This document shows, in pieces, positions 46,797 to 63,975 of a stretch of DNA of 64,000 nt. The stretch lies in assembly GCA_037445065.1 (NCBI GenBank), contig JBBILD010000007.1:128001-192000 (forward strand), given 5' to 3'. The DNA comes from Myxococcales bacterium (GTDB taxonomy: Bacteria > Desulfobacterota > Binatia > HRBIN30). The notes below the pieces were generated by a model. The model ran no database searches. It had not been told where the DNA came from and saw only the letters and a program-made list of their open reading frames with translations. The position numbers were made by a program, and so were the translations under genes. Positions within the stretch are counted from its first letter, which is position 1. Each line of letters begins with the position of its first letter.

Positions 46797-47404
46797 GACT
46801 CGATCGCCTGCAAGATCGCGGCTTGAACGGCTGGGGGCTCTTGTGTGCTGTCAATCACCGCGTAGGGTGTGGCGCTTTTTTGCACGAGTTGGAGGAAGCC
46901 AGCGCGAATGCGCTCGTGGAATGCCAGTGCCTCGCGGTGGAAACGATCGTCTCGTCCGGCGCGTTCGAGGCCGAGGGCTACGGGACAATCGAGCAGCAAG
47001 GTCAGGTCGGGCCAGACCCCACGCCGCGCCAAGGCGTCGGCCTGGCGCACGGCAGCCAGATCGAGGCCGCGCCCGAAGCCTTGGTAGGCAAGCGTCGAGA
47101 GGGAAAAGCGGTCCGACAGAACGAGCTTTCCGGCGGAAAGGGCGGGGAGAACCACCGCAGCCACGTGTTGCGCGCGATCGGCCAAGTACAAGAACAGCTC
47201 GGCCTCGGGGAGCGGCGGATCGGCGCGGGTATCCATGAGCAAGCGGCGGATTTCGAGACCTAAACCCGTGCCACCAGGTTCCCGCGTTTCCACCACATCG
47301 AAGCCGCGCGCTCGCAGGGCCGCCGCCGCAAGCCGGAGGTGGGTGGACTTGCCGGCGCCCTCGACTCCCTCGAACGCGATGAACCGGCCTCGCCTGCTAG
47401 CCAC
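46778..47404 (-). CDS. tmk: Thymidylate kinase
   Basis: FIAFEGVEGAGKST, TREPGG, ADRAQH, SDRF, YQGFGRG. Confidence 0.95.
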   Translation of the reverse strand: MASRRGRFIAFEGVEGAGKSTHLRLAAAALRARGFDVVETREPGGTGLGLEIRRLLMDTRADPPLPEAELFLYLADRAQHVAAVVLPALSAGKLVLSDRFSLSTLAYQGFGRGLDLAAVRQADALARRGVWPDLTLLLDCPVALGLERAGRDDRFHREALAFHERIRAGFLQLVQKSATPYAVIDSTQEPPAVQAAILQAIESCLKET

Positions 47405-47780
47405 GCCCGCTCTCGCGGCCGAGCACAAGCTCGATTCCGTAAATGAGTTGGTGCCCTGTGAAGGGCTTGGTGATGTAGTAATCAGCGCCGTACTGGTAAC
47501 CCTGGACCACGTCTTCGTCGGCTGTCTTCGCGGTCACGAGGATCACGGGAAGCAGGGCCGTCTCCGGATTTTCCTTGATTTTCTGCAGCACCTCGAGGCC
47601 GCTCATCTCGGGCATCATGACGTCCAGCAACACGATGTCCGGCCGCCGCGCACGGATCAATTCGAGAGCTTGCGGTCCGCTACTGGCCTCTTCGACCTCG
47701 TAGCCCCGTGGCTCGAGCAGCCCGCGAACGATCACCAGGCTGTCTGGATTGTCGTCTACCACTAGAACCCGCGTGCCCAT
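47397..47780 (-). CDS. Single-domain response regulator
   Basis: VLVVDD, IVLLDVMMP, VILVTA, GADYYITKPF. No output domain. Confidence 0.92.
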   Translation of the reverse strand: MGTRVLVVDDNPDSLVIVRGLLEPRGYEVEEASSGPQALELIRARRPDIVLLDVMMPEMSGLEVLQKIKENPETALLPVILVTAKTADEDVVQGYQYGADYYITKPFTGHQLIYGIELVLGRESGRG

Positions 47781-47915
47781 CGACCCCGATCCTGGTGGTT
47801 GTGAAGACCACCGCGTCTGTACGCAGACTTTGATTGGAAGCACTGCCGCGTATCCAGTTGCACGGGTTCGTTCTATATCCCGGCTCCCGCTCCTTTGCAA
47901 AGCAAGACTTGTGCT

Positions 47916-48389
47916 TCATGAATCGAACTCCTCGTTCCAGCGTACGCTTACTTCGCCGCTCTCCGTCCAGTGCACGATGGCTTCGACGGCTCGCGTTCCC
48001 CCGCCCCATCCGACACCGCGCGACCGAACGCGCACCGCAGTGGCGTCCACTGGGCTCACCGTTACCTCGTAGCCTTCGCCTGCAGGGCCAAAGGGAATGA
48101 ATTGCCCCGGCACGCCGAACACCCCGCCGTCATCGAAAGTTCCTTGCGCACCGTCGGGCCCACGCAGGGCCTCCTCTGCGGAGCGTTTTTGCGCCACCCA
48201 CGCCAAGGCACGGTCGAGCCCTGCCTCGGCCACATAAAAGGCAGTGGTGGCGCGGCGAGCGTTTTGCGCCTGTAGGAGTTCGATCCAAGCCGCAGTGGCG
48301 ATCCAAAGCGTGGCCGGAAGGAGGAGGCTCACCCAGCCGAGTACCAGTACGAGCGCCGCTCCCTCTGGATCACTCCACCTGCGGCTCAT
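47916..48389 (-). CDS. PilX-like minor pilin
   Basis: EG-AALVLVL class III-like N-terminus without Glu5. AFYVAEAGL motif. Last gene of the minor pilin cluster. Confidence 0.75.
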   Translation of the reverse strand: MSRRWSDPEGAALVLVLGWVSLLLPATLWIATAAWIELLQAQNARRATTAFYVAEAGLDRALAWVAQKRSAEEALRGPDGAQGTFDDGGVFGVPGQFIPFGPAGEGYEVTVSPVDATAVRVRSRGVGWGGGTRAVEAIVHWTESGEVSVRWNEEFDS

Positions 48390-48946
48390 GGCAGCGCTGG
48401 GTTTCGGCGCGCGCTAGTGACGCGCACCCACTCGCGCACGAGGCCCGACCCAGGGCCGCCTTGCCGCTCGGCACAAAGGCGCAGGACAATGGCGCTGGCT
48501 TGCCGCCGCGCCTGCAGATCCCACAGTGGTTGGCCACTGGAGTCGAAGTATCGCAGTTCGAACCCGCCTTCGCTGACATCGGAGAGCCAGGGTTGCGGGC
48601 TTGCCCCGAGCGTGGCGCGGAAGACGGTACGGCGGTCTGCATCCCAAGCGTATGCGACCCGCTCGTGCGCATCGCTGCGGTCGCCATCGCCATTGAGATC
48701 GGCCTCGAAGGTGATCTCCGACGCTCCCGCGATCGGCACGCCGGAAAAGGTTGTCCCGGTGGGGGAAAACCCCGCGATTCGCCACTCCCGTTCGAACATT
48801 TCGCTGGTCACGAGCAGGGCTTGGCGGAGGTCTCGGAGGGCCTGTTGCCGCGCGATGTGCCGCAGTGCGGAGTGGCCGAAAGACGCAGCGTCGGCAGCAA
48901 GCAAGGCAGCCACGGCAAGGGTGGCCATAATCTCGGTGAGACTCAC
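48386..48946 (-). CDS. PilW-like minor pilin (no leader peptide)
   Basis: (M)SLTEIMATLAVAALL, REWRIAGF, ADLNGDGD, FELRYFDSSG. Position in the fimT-pilV-pilW-pilX order. Confidence 0.7.
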   Translation of the reverse strand: MSLTEIMATLAVAALLAADAASFGHSALRHIARQQALRDLRQALLVTSEMFEREWRIAGFSPTGTTFSGVPIAGASEITFEADLNGDGDRSDAHERVAYAWDADRRTVFRATLGASPQPWLSDVSEGGFELRYFDSSGQPLWDLQARRQASAIVLRLCAERQGGPGSGLVREWVRVTSARRNPALP

Positions 48947-49320
48947 GGTGCGCCCCTCCGCCAGACGGTGGTACGCAGCTGCAGAGGTTCTCCCTCCCAG
49001 TTGTCACCGTCCACCTCCACGGTTGCCTCGAACAGTTGGTCAGATTCTGGCGAGCGCTGCCAGCTCCAGCGGGCCTCGAGCGATGCGGAGGGCTGGGCGA
49101 GGGCATCCGACCCGGTGGCGCGCAACGACTCGATCGTATCGCTTGCTAGGCGGAGGGCTTGCTGGATCTGCAGAGAGCGGAGGGAGTGGCGATACGCTTG
49201 AGCAATCGTGCTCGCGGTGAGTGCGGCAGCGATGCCGAAGACTGTCATGGCAAGCAGAACCTCGATCAAGGAGGAGCCACGGGAAGTGCGGTGCATGGCA
49301 GAGTGATCGGCAAGGTTCAT
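48943..49320 (-). CDS. PilV-like minor pilin
   Basis: RG-SSLIEVLLAMTVFGIAA prepilin-type N-terminus. ATGA overlaps. Confidence 0.75.
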   Translation of the reverse strand: MNLADHSAMHRTSRGSSLIEVLLAMTVFGIAAALTASTIAQAYRHSLRSLQIQQALRLASDTIESLRATGSDALAQPSASLEARWSWQRSPESDQLFEATVEVDGDNWEGEPLQLRTTVWRRGAP

Positions 49321-49760
49321 TGCACGCGCACCCTGCCAGCGATGTCGAGGATGACGGAGCGTTCGCTTCCAGCGGCGTTGCGTAAACGCAATGTCCCGAA
49401 GGTTGCTGCGTTTCCCCGCGGGCGGAACGTAAACGAGCTCGCCGTCGCATTGCAGGCGACGATGTGGACGCCTCGGGGTAGCCGCCGGGGAGAGTGGGTG
49501 TCTACGTACGTTGTGCCGTTGCGGGCTTGCAGCCGGTAGGCCGCCTCCCCTTCCGGCAGCAGCAGGCGATGGCTGCGATTGGTGGCCGCGGCGCGCAAGC
49601 GCACCAACGCCAGATCCGCCATCACCTGCTGTGCCGCGGCTTGCAAGGCCAGCTCCTGCTCCCACCTGCGCCAGTGAAACGCAGCGCTGCCCGCAAGCCA
49701 GGCCGCGAGAGCTATGCCGACCAGAACTTCGAGGAGGGCTCTGCCTGCAACGCTTCGCAT
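49317..49760 (-). CDS. FimT/GspH-like minor pilin
   Basis: AG-RALLEVLVGIAL, LALVRLRA, FTFRPRG, C-terminal ILDIAGRVRV. Confidence 0.78.
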   Translation of the reverse strand: MRSVAGRALLEVLVGIALAAWLAGSAAFHWRRWEQELALQAAAQQVMADLALVRLRAAATNRSHRLLLPEGEAAYRLQARNGTTYVDTHSPRRLPRGVHIVACNATASSFTFRPRGNAATFGTLRLRNAAGSERSVILDIAGRVRVQ

Positions 49761-49880
49761 GCCACCGGCCACCAAACGATTTTCGTGCCAGACCCAGATC
49801 GGTGCGAAAAAGCCAGCACGCGTTCGGTCGAAGACCTTTGCTGTTCTCAGGGTGAGAGTGCGAGCTGGCTCAGAGTGAGT

Positions 49881-50657
49881 TCACCACCCGGCGAATTCGC
49901 CGGATGCGAGACGTAGGTACCAAGCGATCCAGGCGTCACCGAAGTACAGGGCCGCCAGCGCGCCGAGGGCAAGGAAGGGCCCGAACGGGATCGGGGTTTC
50001 ATGACTCGAAGGATCTAAGAGGAGCCGAATGCCGCCGACCAGCGAACCGCTCAGCGAGCCGACAAGCAAGGTGAGAAGCACCGCCTTCCAGCCGAGGAAG
50101 GCGCCGATCATGGCGAGCAGCTTGATGTCGCCCCCGCCCATCCCCTCGCGCCCGCGGACGCGAGCGTAGAATTCTGCGACCGCCCACAGAATCCCGCCGC
50201 CGAGCAAGGTCCCGACAACCCGCTCGGCAAGGGACGGGCCCCATCCCGGCAGGGCGAGAAGGAGACCGAGCATGATACCTGGCAGGCTGATTCGGTCCGG
50301 AATGATCTGGTGCTCGAGGTCAATGAAGCTCACGGTTACCAACGCCGCGCACAGGAGCGAGGAGACCGCAGCCCAGGGGGTGAGCCCAAAGAACCACACG
50401 TTTACCGCAAACAGCCCGCCAGTGAGAGCCTCGACCAGCGGGTACTGCCAGGAGATGCGCTGCCCGCAACTGCGGCAACGCCCGCCCAGCCAGAGGAAGC
50501 TCAGAATCGGCACATTGTCCCACGGGCGGATGCGCGCTTGGCAGTGCGGGCAGCGTGAGGGCGGGTAGACGATGGACTCCCCGCGCGGCAAGCGTGCGAT
50601 GCAAACGTTGAGGAAGCTGCCGACAATCGTTCCCAAAAGAAATGCCGCTACCACCAC
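49881..50657 (-). CDS. pilD: Prepilin peptidase/N-methyltransferase
   Basis: GSFLNVCIARLP, CPHC...CRSC, IDLEHQIIPD, GMGGGDIKL, IPFGPFL. Confidence 0.95.
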   Translation of the reverse strand: MVVAAFLLGTIVGSFLNVCIARLPRGESIVYPPSRCPHCQARIRPWDNVPILSFLWLGGRCRSCGQRISWQYPLVEALTGGLFAVNVWFFGLTPWAAVSSLLCAALVTVSFIDLEHQIIPDRISLPGIMLGLLLALPGWGPSLAERVVGTLLGGGILWAVAEFYARVRGREGMGGGDIKLLAMIGAFLGWKAVLLTLLVGSLSGSLVGGIRLLLDPSSHETPIPFGPFLALGALAALYFGDAWIAWYLRLASGEFAGW

Positions 50658-50663
50658 GGGTCC

Positions 50664-52097
50664 TTACCTTTCCGCGCCGGCCTCTTGCATGGCTGCGCGT
50701 GCGTGGAAGGCGGCTTGTTCTGCATTGCCTTCCTGCTCGTACAACTGCGCCAGCAGTTGGTGCGCGCGCGTGAACTGGGGGTCCTGTTGAAGAGCCGCGT
50801 GTGCAGCCCGCCGAGCGGCCGCTCGGTTGCCCTGCTCGCGGTAGGCGACGGCTAGCAGGTAGTGCGCAGGCGCTGCCCAAGGATGGCGCTCCACTGCCCA
50901 CTGCCGCGCGGCTACGTCGTCGCGAAACACGGGCAGGTAGGCCGCACTGAGCAAGGCAGCGAGCGCAGCCACCACTGCCCCGGCCCACCCGGGGGAAGGG
51001 TTCCAGCCGGACAAGCGAACCTGGCGCTCGATGTCCTGCACAGCGCGCGCCGCGAACCAAGCAAAGCCCACCATGGGCACGTACAAGTACCGGTCCGCGC
51101 GCACCACCGCGAGTGGAATGACGTTGCTCACTGGAAGCAACGCTAGCGCCGTCCAACCGAGCCAAAAGCTGAGGTTGGGCCAGGCACGTCCGCGGCGCCA
51201 GAGCCAGAGCAGCAGCGCCAGTGCAGCGAAAACCGCGACAACGCTGCGGAGGGAGTGCACGGAGGCCCGACGGTAGTAGTACGCCGGAGCGAGGTCGAGG
51301 GGCAGGAAGAAACTCATGATGTAATCCCACCACACTCGTCCCATGAGCAAGAGCGTGGTGGCGGCGTCGCCGTGCGCTGGCTTTACGACTTCTCCCCACT
51401 TGGCATAGAGGCTCACTGCTGCAGTGAGCCCCGCCAGTAAGAAGAACGGGAGCTTGTCGCGGTAGCGAACCGGGTGCGGAGAGAACCAGCGCTCATACCA
51501 CAGGAGCATGAGGGGAAACGGAGTCACGCTGGATTTGCTCAGGCACGCTGCTGCGTATGCGAGCAACGAGCTGACGTAGGCGCGCCGGTTCGTTGCGGTG
51601 CGCAAGTAGCGGTCGTAGGCCAGCAAAGCGAGGAGCAAAAACAGTGTGGAAAGCAAGGTTTTCCGCTGCGCGACGATGGCCACCGCCTCCACTTGGAGAG
51701 GATGGAGAGCGAAAAGAAGCCCGGCGATGGTCCCCACTCGTCGGTCGCCAGCCACACGAGTGACCCAAGCTTGCACGAGCCAGGCCACGATGACGTGCAA
51801 CAGCACGTTGGTCAGGTGGTAGCCTCCCGCCCAGGTCCCCCAGAACTGGTAGTCGAGGAGGTAGGACACCATCGGCAGGGGCAGGTAGTCGTACAAGGTG
51901 AACGTGGAGAAGCACAGCCACAACCGCTCCCACGAGAACGGGCCGATGGCTGGGTTCTCTGAAACGAACCCGGGATCATCGAAGGCGACTTGTAAAAACG
52001 GGTAGCCGGTGGTGGGAAGGTACACCGCCAGCGTCAGGAACCCGATCCACAAACAGCCGGTGGCCGGGCGGTCGAGGGTTGCGAGCAGACGGATCAC
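50664..52097 (-). CDS. TMTC-like membrane glycosyltransferase with C-terminal TPRs
   Basis: GTG start overlapping the upstream stop. AFDD luminal motif, YHLTNVLLH, LFALHPLQVEAV, ADRYLYVP. Multiple TM helices followed by TPR-like helices. Confidence 0.78.
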   Translation of the reverse strand: MIRLLATLDRPATGCLWIGFLTLAVYLPTTGYPFLQVAFDDPGFVSENPAIGPFSWERLWLCFSTFTLYDYLPLPMVSYLLDYQFWGTWAGGYHLTNVLLHVIVAWLVQAWVTRVAGDRRVGTIAGLLFALHPLQVEAVAIVAQRKTLLSTLFLLLALLAYDRYLRTATNRRAYVSSLLAYAAACLSKSSVTPFPLMLLWYERWFSPHPVRYRDKLPFFLLAGLTAAVSLYAKWGEVVKPAHGDAATTLLLMGRVWWDYIMSFFLPLDLAPAYYYRRASVHSLRSVVAVFAALALLLWLWRRGRAWPNLSFWLGWTALALLPVSNVIPLAVVRADRYLYVPMVGFAWFAARAVQDIERQVRLSGWNPSPGWAGAVVAALAALLSAAYLPVFRDDVAARQWAVERHPWAAPAHYLLAVAYREQGNRAAARRAAHAALQQDPQFTRAHQLLAQLYEQEGNAEQAAFHARAAMQEAGAER

Positions 52098-52864
52098 GTG
52101 AACTCGCGCCGGCGAAAGATGGCCCAGCTCAGGAACAGGAGGAGGCCGATATAACTGAGGGTGTACACTGCACACCACGCGTAGAACGACCACGGGATGA
52201 GCTGGCCCGCCACCACCCGGTCCGCGATGTAGAGTGCATCGAGCCGCGGCACGATGCGATGCAACACGGCGGCCAGTACCTGCAGCACGGTGGGAAACTC
52301 TTCGCTTTGAAAGTGGGTCAGCCATGCGCTCGAGCGCCCAGCGATAAAAACGCCGGTAGTAAACAGTCCCGCCAGCACGGGTGTGACCACAACCGCACTG
52401 AACAGCACTGCCACTGCTGCCAACAGCGCGGTCTCCAGCAGCATGCACCCCATGGCCGGAACGAGACCCACGTCCACGCGCCGCTCCAGCAAAGCAATGA
52501 TGGCAAGCGTTACCGCACCCATGGAGGCTAACAGCATGGTCAGGGTGAGCAGTAGGCCCAGGTACTTGCCGAGCAGAAACTCGCCCCGTCCGACCGGCTT
52601 GGCGAGCACGTTGTAGATGGTCCGGCGGTGCACTTCATTGTAAACCATGGTCACGCCCAGGACCACTGTGGCTGTGATGCCGAACAAGGAGAGCCCGAAG
52701 AGCGCGAAGTCCTTGACGAACTTGATGGTATCGCCGAGCGATACCGAACCAAAAGCGGCGGCAATGCCGATCAGGAGCACGGAAAACAACATCACGCTGT
52801 AAAGAATCTTGTTGCGGATCGACTCGCGACTCGTGTTCACGGCAATGGCCCAGATCCGCCTCAT
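52094..52864 (-). CDS. ABC transporter permease (Myxococcus PilI-like)
   Basis: IAVNTSRESIRNKILY, EVHRRTIYNVLAKPVGRGEFLLGKYLG, C-terminal FRRREF. About 6 TM. Confidence 0.85.
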   Translation of the reverse strand: MRRIWAIAVNTSRESIRNKILYSVMLFSVLLIGIAAAFGSVSLGDTIKFVKDFALFGLSLFGITATVVLGVTMVYNEVHRRTIYNVLAKPVGRGEFLLGKYLGLLLTLTMLLASMGAVTLAIIALLERRVDVGLVPAMGCMLLETALLAAVAVLFSAVVVTPVLAGLFTTGVFIAGRSSAWLTHFQSEEFPTVLQVLAAVLHRIVPRLDALYIADRVVAGQLIPWSFYAWCAVYTLSYIGLLLFLSWAIFRRREFT

Positions 52865-54666
52865 GGTTGCACTCCTCCATGCGGCCCGGGTTCCGGTTCA
52901 GCCTGCGCTGCTGCGTGCAGTGCAGGATCGCCGGGGTCTAGCGCAGAAGCGATGCGGAAAGCGGCCCGTGCCTTTTCTTTCTCACCGAGTTGTTCCCAGG
53001 CAAGGGCGATTCCTTTCCAAAGGTTTGGCTCCGCGGGTGCGATACGCAGGCCTGCCCGGCACGCTTGCTCCGCTTCTCGCCAGCGGGCAAGACCAATCAG
53101 CAAGCGGCAGCGGTTTTGGTGTGCGCCGCGATGTCGCGGCTCGATGTCGAGCGCGCGCTCGTACCAGGCGAGCGCCTGCTCGAAGGCGCCGAGGTGCTCG
53201 TAGGCCGTGCCTAGGCCGAAGGCAGTACCTTCTTCTCTTGGGTACAGTGTCCAAGAGCGAAGGTACGCTTGGCGGGCTAGCTCATGTTGCCCTGCCCGTT
53301 GCAGCTCCACAGCGTGGTTTTTGTGAGCCTTGGAGCTAAACGGAGCGTCGCGTGCCGTGGCGGCAAAGAGAGCCGCTTGGGTTTGCCAGTCGAAGTTGCG
53401 CTGCCAGGTGCGTACGGCGTAGGCGAGCAGCAGCGCCGTGCTGAACAGAGCGGCGTAAGTACGTGCTCGCGTGCGGAACAAATGCTCGACAGCCAGAGCG
53501 AGAAGCCAGCACAAGCCAATGGAAGGCAAGTACAACAGCCGTTCCGCGCGAACTGTGCCAATGGGAAAGAGCAAGTTCCCGGTGAGGGCGAGGCCCAAGA
53601 GGGGGAAAAGGGCGGCAAAACCAACAGCACCCGGCCGCCTCCAGAAGGTGAACAGGGAGGCGGCAACCAAGGCAATGCCGAGCCACAACCGCCCCTCGAG
53701 GAGCGTTTGCACCGGCGGCACTTGCGGGTAGGAATAGTCCGCGCTCAGCACGAGCGGGACGGCGAACTGGGAAGCATACTCGGCGAGGATGGCGAGTGCA
53801 GTCGCCACACGTTCTGTCCACGGCACGTGCGCCAGCACGTTGTCGGCGAAATCTACGCCGAGCCCAGGAGCCAGCGGCCCGACCACCAGAAAGCGCAGGT
53901 ACAAGTACGCGGCGATACAAGCGAGCCAAGCGAGCCAGTCCAAACGGCGCGCCTCGGCCCACAGTGCTTGCCGCCACGTGCCGCAATGGAAGGATGCGCG
54001 GTAAAGCAGCATCAAGGGCAGCCACAGGACGGAGTTTTCCTTCGCAAACAGGGCCAGGAAAAAAGCGCCGACGGAAACCGCCAACCACAGCCGCCGGCGG
54101 CGCGTGGCACGGGCCGCCTCGCTAGCGGCGAGTGTGGCCGTCAGCCCGAGTAGAGCCGCCAGCAGCTCGTGGCGGCCGACCACACCGGTTACGGCCTCGG
54201 TATGGATCGGGTGCACCGCAAACAGCGCACCAGCCAGGAAGGCAACGCGCGCGCTGCGAAACAGTTGCTGAGCGCTGTACGCGACCAACAAACTGACAAG
54301 GACGTGTAGACCGACGTTGACCAAGTGGAACCACCAGGCAGTGTGCCCGAATAGCCAAGCGTCCAACGCGAAGGTGGCAATGGTGAGTGGCCGGTAAAGG
54401 TCCCCGGGAAACAAGGGAGCCGCCAGCACGGCGAGCCAATCGAGCGGGCCACGCAACGCGGGATGCGCCCAGATTTGCACCCAGTCGTCGAAGACGAACT
54501 CGGCGCCGATCGCGTTCGCGTAGGGAAGGAAGGCAAGAAGGGCGACGGCACAGGCAGGGAAGGCGCAGCTGCGTACGAACCCGAGTACCGCGGTTTGCAA
54601 AGCCACTGCGACAGCCGCGGGTAAAAACCACGGCCGCGCACCAGCAGCGGCAGAAGGATCAGTCAT
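52861..54666 (-). CDS. TMTC-like (DUF1736) membrane glycosyltransferase with C-terminal TPRs
   Basis: FVFDD, YRPLT, FHLVNVGLH, LFAVHPIHTEAVTGVVGRHELL, AKE, LSADYS, AERLLYLPSIG, RNFDW, then about 4 TPRs. Confidence 0.85.
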   Translation of the reverse strand: MTDPSAAAGARPWFLPAAVAVALQTAVLGFVRSCAFPACAVALLAFLPYANAIGAEFVFDDWVQIWAHPALRGPLDWLAVLAAPLFPGDLYRPLTIATFALDAWLFGHTAWWFHLVNVGLHVLVSLLVAYSAQQLFRSARVAFLAGALFAVHPIHTEAVTGVVGRHELLAALLGLTATLAASEAARATRRRRLWLAVSVGAFFLALFAKENSVLWLPLMLLYRASFHCGTWRQALWAEARRLDWLAWLACIAAYLYLRFLVVGPLAPGLGVDFADNVLAHVPWTERVATALAILAEYASQFAVPLVLSADYSYPQVPPVQTLLEGRLWLGIALVAASLFTFWRRPGAVGFAALFPLLGLALTGNLLFPIGTVRAERLLYLPSIGLCWLLALAVEHLFRTRARTYAALFSTALLLAYAVRTWQRNFDWQTQAALFAATARDAPFSSKAHKNHAVELQRAGQHELARQAYLRSWTLYPREEGTAFGLGTAYEHLGAFEQALAWYERALDIEPRHRGAHQNRCRLLIGLARWREAEQACRAGLRIAPAEPNLWKGIALAWEQLGEKEKARAAFRIASALDPGDPALHAAAQAEPEPGPHGGVQP

Positions 54667-55597
54667 GGCTGGCTCCGGCCGGAACGTACCGCAAGAAACG
54701 TTCTTCGAGCGAGCGTCGTGCGGGAAGCACGCTTTCTAGAACGGCCGTGCTTTGGGTGACGGCGTTGAGGAGGTGGCGCAAGGCGTCTGTGTTGCGTAGC
54801 GTAATCTGGGCGGCGGCCCGACTCCCGCTCAGCTCGACCCCGTTGTCCGACTTCAATCGCTCCCACAACTCTGGTGGTAGGTCGCGAACGGCAACCACGT
54901 AGCCCAGGGAGTCGCCCGCGTTGCATTGCAGATCCACCACTTCGCGCAAACGTCCTTGCGCCAGAATTCCCACCCGCTGGCACAGCATCTCCGTGTCGCT
55001 CAGGACGTGTGAAGAAAACAGCACGGCTGCTCCCTCTTGGGCGAGCGCGCCGATCAATTCTCGCATCGAGCGGCGGCCCACCGGATCGAGTCCGGACATC
55101 GGTTCGTCGAGAATGGCCAGACGCGGTCGGTGCAAGATCGCTTGCGCGACTGCGACGCGCTGCAAATTGCCCTTGGAGAGGGTGCGCATGCGTGCATCGA
55201 GCTTGTGTGCGAAGGAAAAGCGCTCTGCGAGTTCTTCGATGCGCCGCTTCCGCTCGGGTGCTGGAACCCCGTAAAGCTGGGCGTAGAACTGCAAGGTCTC
55301 GCGTACGGTGAGGTAGTCGTAAAAGTACGGCTGCTCCGGTGCAAAGCCGACGAGGTGACGCGGATCCTCGCCACTGGAAGTGGCGGCGTGCCAGACGATA
55401 CGGCCCGCGCTCGGGCGCAGCAAGCCCACTAACATTTTGAAGGTCGTCGTTTTGCCGGCGCCGTTGTGGCCAATGAGTCCGAACACCTCGCCCGGGCGCA
55501 CTGCGAAAGAAACCTCTTCCACGGCCGTGACCCGACGGTAGGTCCACGGGTGGCGGAAACACTTACTGACCCCAAGGAGTTCGAGAATCGGTTTCAT
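54659..55597 (-). CDS. ABC transporter ATP-binding protein (Myxococcus PilH-like)
   Basis: GHNGAGKTT, LSKGNLQR, ILDEPMSGLDP, SSH. Confidence 0.92.
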   Translation of the reverse strand: MKPILELLGVSKCFRHPWTYRRVTAVEEVSFAVRPGEVFGLIGHNGAGKTTTFKMLVGLLRPSAGRIVWHAATSSGEDPRHLVGFAPEQPYFYDYLTVRETLQFYAQLYGVPAPERKRRIEELAERFSFAHKLDARMRTLSKGNLQRVAVAQAILHRPRLAILDEPMSGLDPVGRRSMRELIGALAQEGAAVLFSSHVLSDTEMLCQRVGILAQGRLREVVDLQCNAGDSLGYVVAVRDLPPELWERLKSDNGVELSGSRAAAQITLRNTDALRHLLNAVTQSTAVLESVLPARRSLEERFLRYVPAGASHD

Positions 55598-56526
55598 GGC
55601 GTGTGCGAGCGCGGCGCAGACCCGCGCAGGATGGCCTCGCGCATTTGGCTGCTGCCGAGTTTGCGGGGCTTTCTGCCGGAGCGGCTGGCAACCTTACCCG
55701 TGCCGGGTTCGATGACGTACGGGTCGCCAAAAGGATCCACGGGTTCGCCACTGAGCCAACCCAGTTGCTGGAAAGGACGCCAATCGGCGGGAGCCGCCCC
55801 GATCTCGGCGCGATACCGGTCCACCAGGTGTTGCAATTGGGCGAGTTCTGCCGCAAAGCGCAGCTCGCTCATCTGTTGCTGGAGCATGTCCTTCATTTCC
55901 GGAATCTGCGCCGAGGCATAGGCTTGTTGAAGGAACGCCAGGGCCTGCTCCGGACCGCGGTGAGCCGCCTCGATCACTGCGAGAAGTCCACCGAGAAAGG
56001 GCGGAGCATCGGGGCACTGGATCGCGGTGCGTAGCGACTCGCTTGCCCGCTCCAGGTCGTCGCGGAAGAAGTAATAGGAAAAGCCGAGTAGGTAGTGTAT
56101 TTGCCACGAGTGGGGGAGGTTGCGAGTCCCCTTCTCCAGCAGCGCGATGCCCGCGTCGACGTCATTGGCTTCCCAAGGGAGGATGAGCCCCGCGAAGCGG
56201 TACACGTGCTCGGCACTGGGGTCGAGGTCGGTGACGCGGTCGCACATTTCCGCCAGCCATGGGTAGGTCCGATCGCTGCGGTAATGCCGGCCAAAGTAAT
56301 CAATGGTGCGAAACCACAAAGCGTTGGCCAGCGCATGGCGGTAGCCGAGCGAGACTGCCTGTAAAAAGCCGGCCGGGGGTGCATACACCCGTTCGGCTGC
56401 CTGACCGAGCCGGTCGCGCTCGGTGCGTAGCCGTTGCTGTGAAACCACTTGCGCACCAATGAGCGCCGCGAGCGCGAGCAGGAGCAGGCCACGGCGGATG
56501 AGCGAGCCGGGGTGCAGCAGCGCCAT
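55594..56526 (-). CDS. Membrane-anchored helical-repeat protein (Myxococcus PilG-like); start uncertain
   Basis: N-terminal TM, ANALWFRTIDYFG, VTDLDP, LLEKG, LLGFSYYF, DPFGDPY. Lies directly upstream of the pilH/pilI-like ABC genes. Confidence 0.7.
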   Translation of the reverse strand: MALLHPGSLIRRGLLLLALAALIGAQVVSQQRLRTERDRLGQAAERVYAPPAGFLQAVSLGYRHALANALWFRTIDYFGRHYRSDRTYPWLAEMCDRVTDLDPSAEHVYRFAGLILPWEANDVDAGIALLEKGTRNLPHSWQIHYLLGFSYYFFRDDLERASESLRTAIQCPDAPPFLGGLLAVIEAAHRGPEQALAFLQQAYASAQIPEMKDMLQQQMSELRFAAELAQLQHLVDRYRAEIGAAPADWRPFQQLGWLSGEPVDPFGDPYVIEPGTGKVASRSGRKPRKLGSSQMREAILRGSAPRSHTP

Positions 56527-56636: not shown

Positions 56637-58745
56637 TCACCGGCCGGCCTGGCTCGCTGGGCCGGACCAATCCACATCCAACCCATCTCGTTCTCCACTG
56701 GTGTCGCTGAGGCCGTACTTTTGCAGACGATGTCGGAACGAGCGATAGTTGATGCCGAGCAAGTCAGCCGCCCGCTTCTTCACCCCGCCGGCCTCGGCAA
56801 GGGCGCGCAAGATGATGCTCTTCTCGTAAGCAGCGAGGCTGTCGTCGAGGTTGCCACCGACCAGGTCGAGCCGCACCGTGCGCGGCGGAACGGTGGGATT
56901 CGGCTGCGCGGCAGTGGGGGTCCCTTCGGTGCTGCTCCAAGAGGGAACCGAACTGCGCTGGCCGCGCAGCACGTATTCGGGAAGGTGCTCTTCGTGAACG
57001 GTTTCGCCATCGCAGAGGGCAACTGCGTGCTCGATGATGTTCTCCAGTTCGCGAATGTTTCCCGGATAATGGTACTCCTGCAGCCGGCGCGCCGCAGCCA
57101 CCGACAAGCGCTGCACGCTTTTGCCGTGCAGATCGGAGAACTGTTTGAGGAAGCGGCGCACGAGCAAGGGAATGTCTTGCTTCCGTTCCCGCAAGGGTGG
57201 CAGCGACAGAGCCAGCACGTTGAGCCGGTAAAACAGGTCTTCTCGGAAGCGGCCCGCGGCCACCTCTGCCTCCAGGCTGCGGTTGGTGGCGGCAATGATG
57301 CGCACGTCCACACTCACGCTCGTATCGGAACCCACCGGGGTGAAGCTGCGCTCCTGCAGAACGCGCAACAGCTTCACTTGCAGTGGCAGGGGCAGCTCAC
57401 CGATCTCGTCGAGAAAGATGGTGCCGCCGTCCGCGGCGCGGAAGAGCCCGGCACGGTTTTGCACCGCTCCGGTAAACGCTCCGCGGGCGTGACCGAACAG
57501 CTCGCTTTCGATCAGGTTTTCCGGGATCGCGCCGCAGTTGACGGCAATGAAGGGACGCTCGGCGCGCGGGCTGCGCGCGTGCACGGCACGCGCGACCAGT
57601 TCCTTGCCAGTGCCGCTTTCGCCCAGAATCAACAGCGTCGCATCGCTGCGCGCCACCTTTTCGATGAATTCGCGCACGCGCTGCATGGCGGGGGTCGTGC
57701 CGATCAGCCCGTCGGCAGGAACAGGAACATCTGCTTCCAGCGGGGCTTCGATCAAGTCGTCTGCGGCTTGGTGCAGTTTTTCTTCGAGACGGCGCAGTGC
57801 CGTGACGTCCTGCAGGATGAACAGACCTCCGATGGGATTGTGATACGTATCGCGCAGGAGGGTTCCCGAACAGCGGACGATACGCTCGCCATCGCCATTG
57901 GCGGATAGGCGAAATTCGGTGGGCTCGTGCGCGGGGGATTGCAGGAAGCTCAAGCGCCCACTGGCGGTTTGCTTGAGCGCGGGAAACACACTGCCAATGT
58001 CGGTGCCCACCAAAGCGGTAGCTTCGCGGCCAGCGAGGTCCGCGGCCACCGGGTTGGCAGAGGTGATGCGGCCATCGAGGTCGGTGGTGATCAGGGCACT
58101 GTCAATGTTCCGAGCCAGAGCCTCTTGGAGCGAGAGTAGGCGCTCTCGCTCCGCTTCCCGTTCGCGCAGTGTGGCCTCGGCTTGGTGCAAACGGCGGGTG
58201 AGCGAGGCGGAAAGAATGGCGATCAGAAAAAAGCTCGCGTTGGTGATCGCAAAGCGCGCGAGGAACTGAACGTCCGCACTCCCCTGCGGGAAGTTTGCCA
58301 GCGAGGGGAGGAGTTCCAATTGCAGGAGCAAGGAAAGCAACGCATACGCGAGGGAGCTGAGCGAGGCGACCGCGATAGCCCCCGGCATGGAGAGCAGGAA
58401 GGCCGCGGCAATGACGACCAGGGAATAAAGAAAGCCAAAGGGGCTGAGCAGGCCACCAGTGACGTAAATGACGCCGGTGGTCAGCAAAATATCGAAGACG
58501 AGCTGGCCGTACGCGAAGGCGGTGAGCCGCTGGACACGCAACAACACGACAGCCGAAATCAAGGTCATCGCGTACGTGAGCGCGATGGCCCACAGCAGCA
58601 GCACCACAGGCACGGTGTAGCCAGCGAAATCGCTGCGGAAGTAGGCAGCAGCCAGCCCGCCGAGGAAGAGCGACACCAGCAGGACGCGCAAGAGAAGCGT
58701 TGCCTTCAGGCGCTCCCTCAGCCGTTCTTTCGCCTCAAACGGCAT
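56637..58745 (-). CDS. Fused PilS-membrane/PAS - PilR AAA+/HTH sigma54-dependent activator (no kinase, no receiver)
   Basis: PilS-like TM region ([27 protein letters not shown]). PAS ([17 protein letters not shown]). Walker [42 protein letters not shown], Fis [19 protein letters not shown]. Occupies the pilS-pilR position after pilC. Confidence 0.88.
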
Positions 58746-58765: not shown

Positions 58766-59986
58766 TTATCCAATGACCGATCCGAGCTTGAAGATCGGCA
58801 AGTACATGGAGATGACCAGACCGCCGATCACGACACCGAGGAAGACAATGATCAGGGGTTCCATAAGCGACGTGAGGTTGGCAACGGCGTTGTCCACTTC
58901 CTCCTCGTAAAACTCGGCGATCTTGTTGAGCATGGCGTCGAGGGCCCCGGTAGACTCGCCGACCGAGATCATTTGGCAGACCATGGGCGGGAACACTTTG
59001 CTTTCTTGCAAGGGCTCGGCGATGGTCTTGCCCTCGCTGATGCTCACCCGGGTGGCGAGAACCGCTCGTTCGACCACTTTGTTGCCAGCGGTGCGCGCGG
59101 TGATCGCGAGGGCGTCGAGAATCGGTACGCCAGAGGAGACCAGCGTACTGAGGGTGCGGGTAAAGCGCGCCACCGCGCTCTTTCGCAGCAGGTCGCCGAA
59201 CACGGGCGCCTGCAGCAGCAACGCGTCGATACTCAAGCGGCCGGACTCGGTTCGGTACAGTTGGCGGATGGCGAAGGCGCAAGCGGCCACGAATGCGACC
59301 ATGTATTTGAAGTACGCAATGGTGAAGTTGCTGAGGTTAATGACGAACTGGGTCGGTGCCGGCAACTCTTGCCCGAAGCTCGAAAACAGCTCGGCAAACA
59401 CGGGAATCACGAAGATCAGCAGCACTGCGGTGACGCCCACCGCGACGGTGACGATCACGGCTGGGTAAATCATCGCCCCTTTGATCTTGGCCTTGAGTTT
59501 CATGGCCTTTTCCATGTACGCGGCCAAGCGGTTGAGGATCGTATCCAGGATGCCGCCGACCTCGCCGGCGGCCACCATGTTGGTGTACAGGTCATCGAAC
59601 AGTTTGGGATGCTTTTTCAGCGCATCCGTGAAGGTGGAGCCTGCCTCCACCTCTTCTTTGATCTGGCGCACGATGTTGCGCAGCTTTTTGTTGGTGGATT
59701 GGGTCGCCAAAATGTCCAGGCACTGCACGATCGGCAAGCCCGCATCGATCATGGTGGCTAACTGCCGAGTGAACACCACGATGTCGCGTGTGGTAATTGA
59801 ATCGGAGAACCCCGGGATGGTGATTTCCCGATCGAGACCGCGGCCCTTTTCCTTGATCTTGTCGGGCAGCGGCTGGATGCGCTGGGAACGCAGGCGCACG
59901 AGCACAGCGTCGCGCGACGGCGCTTCCATTTCCCCCGCCAACATCTCTCCCCGCGGCGATACGCCTTGCCAACGATACACAGGCAT
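58766..59986 (-). CDS. pilC: Type IV pilus inner membrane platform protein PilC
   Basis: [45 protein letters not shown]. Confidence 0.96.
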
Positions 59987-60073: not shown

Positions 60074-61177
60074 TCAACGCCGGGCACGAGCTGGAGCGCC
60101 GATCATGGCGCGCACCTCGTCAGGCTCGGTCGCGTGCCCGAGCGCCTCGTCGTAGCTGATCAGCCGCCGCTGGTAGAGATCCACCAGCGACTGGCTCATG
60201 GTCTGCATTCCGAACTTCGCCTGTCCGACCTGCATTTGCGAATAAATCTGGTGGATTTTCTCTTCGCGAATGAGGTTGCGGATCGCGGGGTTCGGGATCA
60301 TGACTTCGACGGCCAGCACCCGCCCTTTGCCGTCGAGCCGCGGGATGAGTTGTTGTGAGATGACTCCTTGCAACACGAGCGACAGTTGCGCGCGCACTTG
60401 GGGTTGCTGGCTGGCGGGGAAGATGTCGATGATGCGGCTGATCGTTTGTACAGCAGAATTGGTGTGCAACGTGGAAAGTACGAGGTGCCCCGTTTCCGCC
60501 ACGTTGAGTGCCGAGGCGACGGTTTCTAAGTCGCGCATCTCTCCGATCAGCACCACGTCGGGATCTTGTCGCAGCACGTGGCGCAGAGCCTCCGCAAAGC
60601 CGTGGGTGTCGGCGTACACTTCGCGTTGGTTGACCACGCAGTTGCGGTGCTGGTGAACAAACTCGATGGGGTCTTCGATGGTCACGATGTGTTCGTGCCG
60701 CTCGCGATTGATCTTGTCGATCATGGCCGCAAGGGTGGTGGATTTGCCGCTTCCCGTGGGCCCGGTGACCAACACCAACCCGCGCGGCAGTTTGGTGAGT
60801 TCTGCCACCACCGGCGGCAACCCGAGCTCCGCCAGGCTGCGCACTTCGTAAGGGATCAGGCGGAAAGCGCCGCCGACCGTACCCTTTTGCAGAAACAGGT
60901 TGCCGCGGAAGCGGCTCAGCCCGCGAATGCCGAAAGAAAAGTCGAGCTCCGCTTGCTCTTCGAAGCGATGCCGCTGGCTATCGGTGAGCAGGCTGTAGCA
61001 CAGGGTTTTTGTCTCGTTCGCGGTGAGCGGCGGGAAGGGGAGCGGCTGCAGGACTCCATTCACCCGCATCATGGGCGGTGCATCGGCGGAGATGTGCAAG
61101 TCCGTGCCGCCGTGCTTGACGACCAGCTCGAGAAACGTCTGGATGCTCAAAGGGGCAGCAGCACTGACCTCGGACAT
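60074..61177 (-). CDS. pilT: Type IV pilus retraction ATPase PilT
   Basis: [49 protein letters not shown] motif. Confidence 0.97.
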   Translation of the reverse strand: MSEVSAAAPLSIQTFLELVVKHGGTDLHISADAPPMMRVNGVLQPLPFPPLTANETKTLCYSLLTDSQRHRFEEQAELDFSFGIRGLSRFRGNLFLQKGTVGGAFRLIPYEVRSLAELGLPPVVAELTKLPRGLVLVTGPTGSGKSTTLAAMIDKINRERHEHIVTIEDPIEFVHQHRNCVVNQREVYADTHGFAEALRHVLRQDPDVVLIGEMRDLETVASALNVAETGHLVLSTLHTNSAVQTISRIIDIFPASQQPQVRAQLSLVLQGVISQQLIPRLDGKGRVLAVEVMIPNPAIRNLIREEKIHQIYSQMQVGQAKFGMQTMSQSLVDLYQRRLISYDEALGHATEPDEVRAMIGAPARARR

Positions 61178-61191
61178 CGGCCACCTCCGCT

Positions 61192-62889
61192 TCAATCCGC
61201 CATCGTGACGCGCACGACTTCGTGGATGGTGGTCAGTCCTTGCTTGAGTTTCTGAATGCCGCTCATGCGCAGGGTCTTCATGCCGTTGGCGACAGCAGTG
61301 CGCTTGATCTCGCTCGCCGATGCGCCGTTGAGCACCAGTTCGCGGATGTTTTCGGTGACCGGCATCACCTCGTACAAGGCAATGCGGCCGCGATAGCCGC
61401 TGCCGTTGCAGCTCGGGCAGCCGGCGCCGTGGAACGGGGTGAAGGTGCCCACTTCTTCTTCCGGGACGCCGATGTCGAGCAACGCTTGCGGGTGGATCTC
61501 CGCTGGCTCCTTGCAGTTCGTGCAGATCAGCCGCGCCAAGCGCTGGGCTAAGATCAAGTTCACGGAAGAGGCCACCAAAAACGGCTCCACGCCCATGTTC
61601 AGCAGGCGGTTGATCGTGGAGGGTGCGTCGTTGGTGTGCAGGGTACTTAGGACCAAGTGTCCGGTGAGGGCTGCCTTGATGGCGATTTCCGCCGTTTCGA
61701 AGTCGCGGATCTCACCGACCATGATGATGTCGGGGTCTTGCCGCAGGAAAGAGCGGAGGGCAGCGGCGAAGTTGAGGCCGATCTCTTCGTGGATTTGCAC
61801 CTGGTTGATCCCGGGTAAGTTGAACTCGACCGGATCTTCTGCAGTGGAGATGTTGGAGGTGACTCGGTTGAGCTCCGAGAGTGCGGAGTACAAGGTGGTG
61901 GTTTTCCCGCTACCCGTGGGGCCGGTGACCAACACCATGCCGTAGGGCTTGTAGATCGCCTCTTTGAAATCGCGCAGTTGGTCGTCATCGAAGCCCAGCT
62001 TGGTCATGTCGAGCTGCAGGTTCGATTTATCTAGCAGCCGCAGCACAATTTTTTCGCCGAAGATCGTGGGCAGAACGGAGACGCGAAAATCCATTTCTTG
62101 ACCGCGACCGAGCTTGAGCTTGATGCGCCCGTCTTGGGGCAAGCGCCGTTCTGCGATGTCGAGCGAGGCCATGACCTTGATGCGCGAGGTGATGGCGTTC
62201 TTGAGTTTGAGCGGCGGCCGCATGATCTCTTCCAGCACGCCGTCCACCCGGAAGCGCACACGGAAGAGTTTCTCGAAGGGCTCGAGGTGGATGTCCGAGG
62301 CGCGCCGCTTGATGGCGCTGGTGAGGATGGCGTTCACCAAACGGACTACGGGAGCGTCCTCGGTGGCGCGCTCGAGTTCTTTGAGGTCGATGTCTTCCTC
62401 TCCCTCCACCACCTCGACGTCATCATCCGCGCCGAGCTGGGTGAGCACTTCCTCGTAGTTCGACCCTTCCTCGTAGTACTTCTCGATCGCTGCGGTAATG
62501 GCACTCACGCACGCGACGGCTACCTTCACGTCGTAGCCGGTGAGGAATTTTACTTCGTTGATGGCGACCAAGTTGGAAGGGTCGGACATCGCCACCGTTA
62601 GGGACGAGCCGCTGAGGCTAATCGGGATCAGGTGGTGGCGCTGCACGATGTTGACCGGCACCAAGCGAATCACCTCCGGCGGGATGTTCATCACGGAGGG
62701 GTCGAGCAACGACAGGTGGTACTCGCGTTGCAGGATGGCGGCCAGCTCGGCCTCGTCTACGAGTTGCCGTCTGACGACGGCGACGCTGAAAGGCTGCTGA
62801 GCGGTCTCAGGGTCTTCCAAAAGCTTGTTTAACTGCTCTGCAGTGATGAGCCGGCGGCGAACGAGCAACTCCCCGAGTCGGCTACTCAT
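61192..62889 (-). CDS. pilB: Type IV pilus assembly ATPase PilB
   Basis: MshEN-like RLGELLV N-terminus, [31 protein letters not shown]...CPSC Zn motif. Confidence 0.96.
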
Positions 62890-63002
62890 CGTTTTTGGCC
62901 TCCGAAGTTCTGCCCGGTCATTTCCGGCGGACCCACCTGTGCTTCTCTCCAACAACGCCATCCTGTCCTGTTGCGCTCCCTTCCGTAGGGAATCCGGCTT
63001 CA

Positions 63003-63017: not shown

Positions 63018-63268
63018 AATAGAAGGTGACGAATTTTGGCAGTAAAGCCTTTGGGGCGTGTACCGATTTTTGTCACCCCATCGCGGGGAGCGTGCATCAT
63101 TGTCACGCCTGCTCAATCGGGCCCAAACACTCCTTGAATCCGCTCGGGCCGGCGGTTCGGACACGGCTCACCCCAACTCAGCGCCTCCAGCTCAGGCCGC
63201 CACGCGGTGTAGTCGCTCTGACTCCACCCCGGTCCTCCCTCCGAGCCCGTTCTCCCCTCCAGCCTCCC

Positions 63269-63858
63269 TTTCCTGGGACATCCACTTGCCCTTCCCGGAG
63301 CTCCTTCCTGGGACACCCACTTGCCCTTCCTGGGACACCCACTTGGCCTTCCCCGTTGCTTCCAGGGGCACCCACCTTTGGGGGCACCGATGCCCGTAGC
63401 TCAGACCATCGTTCTCCGGACACCCACCGGGACGGGCGCGACCTGGCCGCCGGGCGAGTAGTGGCGGCCCTTGTGGCCCCCCGCGGTGCCGATGGCGAGC
63501 AGCCAGCGGCCAGCGCTAGGCGGGAGCAGCCAAGGGCGAATAGTGTGGGTCAGCCTCGTCAGGCACCAGTTCCGTTGGACACCCAACGCAGGCCCGCAGC
63601 CCATGCTCCTGGGCTCCTTCGGACAGTATCCGCCCCAGGTACGACACCGCACGCACTAGAATGTCTTCCTCGTATTCGCGCACACCCACTCGTATTCGCG
63701 CGTATTCTTGGACACCCCACTTGGGGGCTAAGGAGCACCACGACTGGACACCCACCCCGATGGCGCCACCACGAATGGACACCCACCCCGATGGCACTGA
63801 TGCGCCAAGGGGAGACCATCGTTCTTGGGGCACCCACCCACGTTCTCTGGACACCCAC
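63269..63858 (+). repeat. Cluster of about 11 same-strand GGACACCCAC-core repeats, including 22-bp and 31-bp tandem units
   Basis: Cores at 63276, 63311, 63333, 63366, 63418, 63577, 63710, 63746, 63777, 63828, 63849. cttcctgggacacccacttgcc x3 (63269-63347). caccacgaxtggacacccaccccgatggc x2 (63736-63797). Confidence 0.85.
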
Positions 63859-63888
63859 CGGGAGCGGCACGACCTGCCCGCCGGACGC

Positions 63889-63975
63889 GTAGGGGCAGCC
63901 CTTGTGGCCGCCCGCGGTACGATTTGAACGTTCGTTGTTGCCCGGAAGGACACGCGGGAACAAGGCCGCCCCTAC
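63889..63975. repeat. Inverted pair of GTAG-type REP-like elements (REPIN/BIME-like)
   Basis: GTAGGGGCAGCCCTTGTGGCCGCCC (63889-63913) faces ...ACAAGGCCGCCCCTAC (to 63975). A further copy, GTAGTGGCGGCCCTTGTGGCCCCCC, is at 63458-63482. Confidence 0.7.

Follow-up and report, generated by a model that had tools for sequence, protein, structure and literature searches.

The window analysed here is a stretch of 64,000 nucleotides (positions 128,001 to 192,000 of contig JBBILD010000007.1, assembly GCA_037445065.1) from a bacterium that is deposited under Myxococcales and placed in the Binatia by GTDB. It carries a pil gene cluster in which pilB, pilT and pilC are followed by a single 702-aa open reading frame (ORF) at the place of pilS and pilR, the order pilC-pilS-pilR being canonical elsewhere. 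An earlier note on this DNA, made from the sequence alone, had proposed that the two genes are collapsed here into one encoding a membrane-bound activator of sigma-54-dependent transcription. The ORF is real and lies on the minus strand, with its ATG at 58745 and its stop at 56637, the plus-strand translation of the same interval being stop-ridden; GGGAGG lies approximately 10 nt, and the pilC stop codon 20 nt, 5' of the ATG. Taken as a whole, the evidence is best explained by a fused, one-protein sigma-54 activator that replaces PilS–PilR and has pilA as its target, a reading that we consider probable.

Pfam resolves the protein into 6TM_PilS – PAS – Sigma54_activat – AAA_lid_14 – HTH_8 (Table 1), which, together with the alignments, bears out the PilS-like membrane sensor, PAS domain, intact AAA+ domain with its GAFTGA loop and helix-turn-helix (HTH) that had been read from the sequence; the protein strings quoted at the time are all present in the translation. 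A hydropathy scan shows six hydrophobic segments between residues 13 and 183 and, since the number of transmembrane (TM) segments is even and basic residues precede TM1, everything past TM6 should be cytoplasmic. HisKA (PF00512), HATPase_c (PF02518) and Response_reg (PF00072) gave no match in the Pfam scan at E ≤ 0.01, in keeping with the claim that H-box, HATPase and receiver are absent. The junction, which had been put at about 57700-57820, maps to residues ~320-350 (window 57698-57788), where it stands in place of the H-box, HATPase_c, receiver and PilR coiled-coil linker. The AAA+ motifs are well kept: in an alignment of 51 sequences reaching 40% identity the Walker A motif GESGTGKE and the DE of Walker B are invariant, as are G422, T425, G426 and A427 of the GAFTGA loop, with A423 and F424 at least 90% conserved. 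The protein has both the make-up of a transmembrane one-component regulator (TM and DNA-binding domains in one protein without kinase or receiver) and that of bacterial enhancer-binding proteins (bEBPs), namely an AAA+ domain with Walker A and B and GAFTGA, a C-terminal HTH, and rpoN in the genome. Matches in the PDB, to FleQ, ZraR, NifA and NtrC1, cover the AAA+ part only. In NCBIfam, which contains no PilR model, no model scored above its cut-off, the best (NifA, RtcR, NorR and NtrC) all falling below theirs.

To trace the origin of the N-terminal half, residues 1-335 were queried on their own against 1.84 billion representatives. Many proteins of 530-600 aa gave a single continuous alignment covering residues ~5-327, with roughly 30-39% identity and E values between 1e-25 and 1e-38. 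A Pfam scan of 80 of the 150 listed matches, with very long multi-PAS proteins and the last 62 entries set aside, showed that the full-length proteins among those scanned are 6TM_PilS-PAS-HisKA-HATPase_c kinases together with nine fused proteins (637-775 aa). The fusion tracks the kinases through the PAS domain and into the first turns of the helix that leads to DHp (kinase counterpart FQDLTKLREMEDELKRADR); past that point the kinases run on into the H-box AHEIRNPL, whereas the fusion enters a variable acidic linker. The break point is therefore at the start of the kinase H-box helix, and it is also the start of the PilR AAA+ domain. Fusion and PilS-type kinases have in common a set of polar membrane residues (R20, Q81, D85, T96-G97-G98, S101, F103, Y107 and Y134) and with it the motif TGG..S.F...Y; the TM1 arginine, R20, never varies among the 51 fused proteins, and its conservation in 49 kinases is at least 80%. 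By these alignments the N-terminus is PilS-like over its whole length, TM and PAS included, which removes the reservation in the earlier note that it might be unrelated to PilS.

When residues 341-702 were searched alone, the closest regulators bearing a receiver (REC-type) were proteins of ~460 aa with 54-58% identity, labelled PilR by JGI. The fusion resembles them only from LIGxSPAM onwards, where the AAA+ domain starts, and contains nothing that corresponds to their receiver and coiled-coil linker. When a tree was built from the AAA+-HTH region, fused proteins and REC-type regulators formed a clade (support 97 in the Shimodaira-Hasegawa-like approximate likelihood ratio test) that leaves out the 11 other bEBPs of the genome, and the recognition-helix region of the HTH is near-identical between the fusion and PilR-type regulators. 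In all six loci examined the REC-type relatives adjoin PilS-type kinases, pilC, pilA or pilD: the order is pilC-pilS-pilR in L074 (a Nitrospira metagenome-assembled genome, MAG), L084 (a Candidatus Acidiferrales MAG, with a pilin next) and L112 (a Methylomirabilota MAG), pilR-pilS in L069 and L150, and pilR-pilA-pilD in L149. By this context the REC-type relatives are true PilR proteins, and by tree and alignment the C-terminal half of the fusion belongs with them.

P0174, another fused member of the family and the first row of the query alignment, is colinear with pilS followed by pilR in L074, L084 and L112 over ~3.03-3.07 kb. Its 668 matched residues need ~2.0 kb, and the remaining ~1 kb between the halves is about as long as DHp, HATPase_c, receiver and linker combined. 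Since the N-terminal half is PilS-like, the C-terminal half falls in the PilR clade, and colinearity and break point agree, the fusion would have arisen most simply by an old in-frame deletion of ~1 kb between adjacent pilS and pilR. The in-frame loss that the earlier note had proposed thus stands as the simplest origin, on break points and clades, although not as an event in this genome, because the family is old and extends to 28 of 40 relatives and to other classes. Separate trees of the TM/PAS and AAA+ parts, which the note had called for, place 18 of 20 fused proteins in one group each time (support 98 and 87 for the N-terminal and C-terminal halves, respectively). The approximately unbiased test does not reject a single origin (p = 0.36), and one to three fusion events are possible on these trees.

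The fused form is widespread. Among the 120 best protein clusters at 90% identity (the protein's own cluster included; 53-100% identity), 119 carry both 6TM_PilS and Sigma54_activat and none carries HisKA, HATPase_c or Response_reg; their sources are mostly named as 'Candidatus Binatia bacterium' MAGs. We compared 40 related genomes, 24 from the same family and 16 from three other families of the order. A full-length, single-frame fusion of 49-78% identity is present in 28; in three more (G014, G038, G040) the match is shorter and still spans the junction, the N-terminal piece in G030 reaches through the junction before a contig end cuts it off, G007 has a C-terminal piece at a contig start, and seven have no match. 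In five relatives without a full-length fusion there was no strong PilS-type match besides the truncated copy of G030. The fusion lies immediately downstream of pilC in 10/10 loci examined in these relatives. A further 300 genomes of the phylum, searched at E ≤ 1e-100, a threshold that misses more divergent copies and makes the count a lower bound, yielded at least five with matches spanning both halves. One of the five, G026, was already among the 40 relatives; the new ones, G330, G076, G060 and G066 (the last matched over residues 6-590), have the same Pfam architecture directly after pilC in 4/4 loci, at 39-44% identity and a GC content of 33-67%; over other classes of the phylum the identity range is 39-49%. 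The mapping check that had been suggested against mis-assembly was answered by contigs of two other samples, likely of the source study, which bridge the junction: record 5 of X2 spans 57493-58149 with 0 differences and record 13 of X3 spans 57631-57844 with 4. Neither of the hot-spring runs, X5 and X6, covered the junction. Given the bridging contigs and the recurrence in dozens of independent assemblies, the junction is no assembly artefact; with the invariant AAA+ motifs, these results rule out mis-assembly and decay alike. The refuting case that the relatives all keep separate pilS and pilR while this copy decays does not apply, 28 of the 40 having the fusion in an open frame. From its distribution the fusion is an old family under long-term conservation and, because the fused form is conserved across the order, a single working protein seems to have taken the place of a two-protein signalling system.

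Several candidates for other forms or hosts of the fusion were considered. A profile search of genome contigs gave at least 80 listed loci, mostly ordinary bEBPs, with AAA+ motifs treated as patterns. The only apparently full-length compact match among them, L069, is pilR followed by pilS and no fusion, and no named organism outside the lineage of the window has a fusion among those loci. Four proteins with TM and PAS only (P0123, P0125, P0137, P0170) were rejected as a split form and taken for fragments, three being marked partial and the fourth being a read-set entry without a contig. A look-alike cluster from Bdellovibrionota (677 aa; commonest phylum, score 0.99) is an unconfirmed lead. 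The database also holds three AAA+-HTH-only calls of 373-403 aa, P0312, P0338 and P0350, on contigs of up to 6.17 Mb. They group with a fused protein in the tree, and the 90% cluster of P0312 includes a 689-aa member; miscalled start sites or frameshifts could account for them, or they could be true short forms.

The genome of the window (G000; 3.79 Mb, 97.7% complete) encodes 12 bEBPs and has rpoN, by a Sigma54_DBD match on contig C2 (E 2e-63). It holds no separate PilS/PilR pair: the other 6TM_PilS matches are two kinases, both weak and neither paired with a bEBP. One of these, at G000:C10:89379-91389 (locus L002; 31.6 bits), precedes a 188-aa receiver-HTH_8 protein lacking AAA+, a pair that we take to resemble RegB/RegA (PrrB/PrrA) and not a pilus regulator; the second has no adjoining regulator. 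Downstream of the fusion (Table 1), the membrane/TPR-like protein and the ABC ATPase are kept in relatives, and the layout at window 50664-56526 (minus strand) resembles that of pilG-pilH-pilI in the Myxococcus pil cluster.

Table 1. The fused gene, its domains and the genes around it, in window coordinates; residues are those of the 702-aa protein.
Feature	Position	Strand	Evidence or remark
Fused pilS-pilR gene, 702 aa	56637..58745	-	Pfam; full length in 28/40 relatives
6TM_PilS membrane domain, residues 7-192	58170..58727	-	PF25323, E 7e-15, 55.6 bits vs cut-off 27
PAS, residues 207-319	57789..58127	-	Pfam; AlphaFold2 model
Junction: signalling-helix remnant (315-332) and acidic disordered linker (333-351)	57693..57803	-	Alignments, pLDDT
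Sigma-54 interaction AAA+, residues 347-513	57207..57707	-	PF00158, E 1.5e-73
AAA+ lid (AAA_lid_14), residues 519-599	56949..57191	-	Pfam
Fis-type HTH_8, residues 637-677	56715..56837	-	Pfam; preceded by disordered linker 597-623
pilC (T2SSF)	58766-59986	-	Pfam; directly upstream of fusion
pilT	60074-61195	-	Pfam
pilB	61192-62961	-	Pfam
Membrane/TPR-like protein	about 55594-56526	-	Cluster downstream of fusion
ABC ATPase	54659-55597	-	Cluster downstream of fusion
ABC-2 permease	52094-52864	-	Cluster downstream of fusion; one TPR protein before, one after
Prepilin peptidase pilD	49881-50657	-	Downstream end of cluster 49881..56526

Other features of the genome are recorded here as observations. 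Past pilD, window 47397-49775 (minus strand) holds four minor-pilin-like genes, of which one is GspH-like, another has an N_methyl motif and two show a hydrophobic N-terminus only, and then a lone receiver protein of 167 aa, with no kinase in the pil cluster. A very long ORF of 2294 aa occupies window 28931-35815 (minus strand). A second bEBP, of 861 aa, is encoded at G000:C3:212022-214607 (L148:523-3108, minus strand); its hydrophobic segments lie at ~45-121 and 298-323, its first 530 residues match no Pfam domain, and it may be another, different kind of membrane-bound sigma-54 activator.

The candidate target of the fusion is likely pilA. Of the 33 genomes with a whole or partial fusion, 20 carry between one and three PilA-like genes on its strand, within ~0.3-1.5 kb downstream of it; a PilA-like gene is likewise downstream in the distant G076, and a ComP-like pilin in G330. 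No major pilin gene adjoins the regulator in this window: in its own genome and in the neighbouring genus pilA lies away from the pil cluster, here at G000:C3:151698-152075. Upstream regions of 400 nt were scored against the consensus TGGCAC-N5-TTGCW, requiring at least 9/11 positions with GG and GC present. A match was found upstream of 29 of 37 distinct pilA-like genes (30/39 rows), set against a genome-wide background of 0.049 per 400 nt. The candidate at the genome's own pilA, CGGTACGAGGTTTGCT (CGGTAC-N5-TTGCT), lies 39 nt before a GTG start that is preceded by GGAG, and the element is kept in five genomes of the neighbouring genus. Of the genomes with an examined pilA, 25/26 with the fusion had a promoter match compared with 1/4 without it (G011, 81% complete, has one; G004, G012 and G015 have none); because the genomes are kin, this contrast is suggestive and not a statistical test.

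A palindrome, GACAAACTTTGTC, lies 119 nt upstream of the own-pilA promoter, and its core GACAA-N3-TTGTC has one exact copy in the whole 3.79 Mb genome. With up to one mismatch it occurs upstream of 12 of the 37 distinct pilA-like genes, 95-119 nt before the -24 element, where the background is 0.0043 per 400 nt; it is likely the enhancer, here termed putative, that the HTH of the fusion binds. The hallmarks given for PilR sites of Pseudomonas aeruginosa in the available text of one study are GTCT elements and a NifA-like TGT-N11-AGA (PMC6058289); the palindrome is of the same general kind, its identity with those sites not being established.

Other promoter-like sequences were noted. The displaced pilA region G000:C3:151540-152075 (loci L005, L034) retains both candidate promoter and palindrome. 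At G000:C5:19732-19806 (minus strand; L009) a pilin-like gene has a 10/11 sigma-54 match, GGGCACGCCTGTTGCT, 43 nt before the N-methylation motif, with no palindrome there at the threshold used. TGGCAC-N14-TTGCA upstream of the genome's own pilA was rejected as its promoter on account of the spacing. Within the pil cluster of the window nothing convincing matched the canonical sigma-54 consensus beside the regulator. TGGTACTCGCGTTGCA, at window 62717-62732 (plus strand), matches at 10/11 positions inside the 5' part of pilB and points opposite to that gene, 294 nt before a divergent ORF at 63026-63892 (288 aa, no Pfam family).

An AlphaFold2 model of the fusion (mean predicted local distance difference test score, pLDDT, 83; predicted TM-score 0.46) shows TM6 continuing into the PAS domain as one helix, residues 159-213. 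After a helix at 315-332 the chain is disordered (333-351) until the AAA+ domain is reached, with pLDDT < 50 at 332-338, and a second disordered stretch, 597-623, lies ahead of the HTH. Across the family alignment the linker between sensor and AAA+ ranges from almost nil to ~25 columns. The AAA+ sensor-II motif and the HTH are a median of 92 aa apart in fused proteins (50/51 measurable) and 73 aa apart in REC-type regulators (16/21 measurable), a comparison that takes kin sequences as they stand.

How might such a protein work? Phosphotransfer through the fusion is, on its domain content, impossible because H-box/DHp, HATPase_c and receiver are absent. We infer, with good support, that the fusion would activate sigma-54 transcription of pilA from the palindromic enhancer. 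Receiver dimers hold the AAA+ domains of NtrC1/DctD-type proteins apart; by analogy, a dimeric TM-PAS-helix module could govern ring formation by loosely tethered AAA+ domains without phosphorylation. The fusion would act while tethered to the membrane, the two flexible linkers flanking the AAA+ domain allowing the ring and the HTH to reach DNA. More speculatively, where pilA adjoins the regulator gene, as in most relatives, co-translational insertion could keep the pilA promoter near the regulator. The input is probably, with less certainty, the inner-membrane pilin pool, as for PilS. PilS contacts PilA through its six TM segments in an autoregulatory circuit, according to the available text of PMC6058289, and residues important for the contact are given as R24 of PilS and E5 and P22 of PilA in the accessible part of PMC6528607. 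In 28 pilins E5 is invariant and P22 at least 90% conserved. When residues 1-215, which hold the TM domain, were modelled in complex with mature PilA from alignments of 51 and 28 rows, respectively, the score was 0.01, which is evidence neither way.

A number of points weigh against an activator that senses pilin and fires from the membrane. Eight of the 37 pilA-like genes have no promoter match at the threshold used, the palindrome is found at only the 12 mentioned above, and its link to the fusion is one of co-occurrence only; the relatives are moreover kin, and the counts overstate independence. The fusion locus appears in no listed RNA run. The equivalence of R20 to R24 of P. aeruginosa PilS is putative. 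The linker between sensor and AAA+ is disordered and variable in length, which argues against a rigid helical signal relay. Two of the 20 fused proteins, P0149 and P0163, fall among the kinases and the REC-type regulators in both trees. No precedent for a six-member bEBP ring on a six-TM anchor was found in the literature, and in RedR2/BtdS a bEBP held at the membrane is switched off, as the available portion of PMC10084136 has it.

The fusion might be a sigma-54 activator of pilus genes whose TM segments serve for anchoring or localisation only, the PAS domain reading a cytoplasmic signal such as redox state or a small ligand. The PAS domain is indeed conserved, and a paper cited in PMC6058289 has, by its title, a role of the PilS TM domain in polar targeting as its subject, which we count in favour of this explanation. 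Nonetheless, R20, Q81, D85 and TGG-S-F-Y are common to the fusion and PilS-type kinases despite their great divergence, whereas a mere anchor would not need them, and the pilin residues published for PilS contact are conserved as well. We therefore regard a purely anchoring role as unlikely.

The disordered linker could instead mark a tethered precursor, inactive in its membrane form, from which a protease cutting within ~333-351 would release a soluble, PspF-like, constitutive AAA+-HTH protein. The low pLDDT of the linker and its variable length would suit such a cut, as would the long-contig AAA+-HTH-only calls P0312, P0338 and P0350, and silencing of a bEBP by membrane sequestration is known from RedR2/BtdS (PMC10084136, in its available part). 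However, neither a protease site nor a partner protease was identified, P0149 is almost without a linker, the short forms may be start-site miscalls (recall the 689-aa cluster member), and the conserved sensor residues would be left without a role, making release by proteolysis rather improbable. That the gene is a decaying pilS-pilR remnant, after the precedent of the fused pilS/pilR homologues of the gonococcus, a species with inactive rpoN (PMC6528607, available text), or an assembly chimera, is so improbable as to be nearly negligible, given an open frame, catalytic motifs invariant across 51 sequences to 40% identity, occurrence in distant classes as well as the 28 relatives, no frameshifts or relaxed constraint in relatives, intact rpoN, sigma-54 promoters kept at pilA and a junction bridged by other samples.

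We return to a membrane-embedded activator that replaces PilS–PilR. In its fullest form, which we put forward tentatively and hold to be possible, not expected, the whole order and scattered lineages beyond it would run pilin autoregulation through one such protein, with pilin gating the AAA+ ring without phosphorylation and pilA, with its genome-unique enhancer, transcribed at the membrane. The arrangement would stem from one or perhaps several collapses of pilS and pilR, and would be the first functional integral-membrane bEBP and a minimal form of PilS signalling.

The usual view of bEBPs is that of soluble ATPases forming rings on DNA. A conserved bEBP on a six-helix anchor raises the issue of how ring assembly, DNA looping and sigma-54 contact work from the membrane. 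To our knowledge, it is not yet understood how the PilS domain transmits the pilin signal; the fusion would offer a phosphorylation-free readout of the PilS sensor, with one protein and one predicted target site in this genome. It would also indicate that a two-component system can collapse to a one-component system by a single deletion. The family is of relevance to sigma-54 activators, to two-component evolution and to pilus regulation. Taken singly, its parts are ordinary, and 'PilR' is the label that JGI already gives to such proteins; for the combination, one published precedent was found.

The nearest precedent is Rsp of Neisseria gonorrhoeae, which is said to have been described by Carrick, Fyfe and Davies in 2000 (FEMS Microbiol Lett 186:197). 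Gonococcal rpoN is reportedly inactive, going by the title of a paper cited in the discussion of Rsp. Rsp is a fusion of nps (pilS homologue) and npa (pilR homologue) at the same locus (PMC6528607); in the available text of that paper it is discussed as a remnant and appears not to control pilE. The accessible part of a second paper states that Rsp represses pilA and takes it as a hint that transmembrane regulators may evolve from two-component systems (PMC10269533). By contrast with Rsp, the present family extends across an order and beyond, keeps all AAA+ motifs, and occurs in genomes with rpoN and sigma-54 pilA promoters. Rsp is likened to it by description only. If the comparison holds, the architecture called a remnant in the gonococcus can be a stable, functional design. 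Besides Rsp, no conserved TM-anchored PilS–PilR fusion and no integral-membrane bEBP was found in the full-text literature searched, from which subscription journals are mostly absent.

Among transmembrane transcription regulators (TTRs), ToxR, CadC and TcpP likewise unite sensor, anchor and DNA-binding domain in one protein and find their promoter from the membrane. They are mostly single-pass proteins with a winged-helix or similar domain acting with sigma-70, whereas the fusion is a six-TM AAA+ protein that would need oligomerisation and ATP hydrolysis. In the text available from the supplementary tables of a TTR census 'Sigma54' is absent, and HTH_8 accounts for 72 TTRs, or 0.14% (PMC10269533). 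Phosphorylation-independent control of AAA+ by an N-terminal sensor is shared with NifA (GAF), DmpR/XylR (V4R), the PAS types TyrR and PrdR, and PspF; these are, however, soluble and without a PilS-type membrane domain. The system to which the fusion remains closest is PilS–PilR itself, as in P. aeruginosa, Myxococcus, Geobacter, Kingella and, as Nps/Npa, commensal Neisseria. The fusion shares with it the six-TM family, the PAS domain, the AAA+-HTH clade and the slot after pilC and before pilA, and its likely target is of that kind too, namely a pilA promoter that depends on sigma-54 and has an enhancer upstream. In contrast to that pair, it is one polypeptide, an integral-membrane activator that does without H-box/DHp, HATPase_c, receiver and PilR coiled-coil linker.

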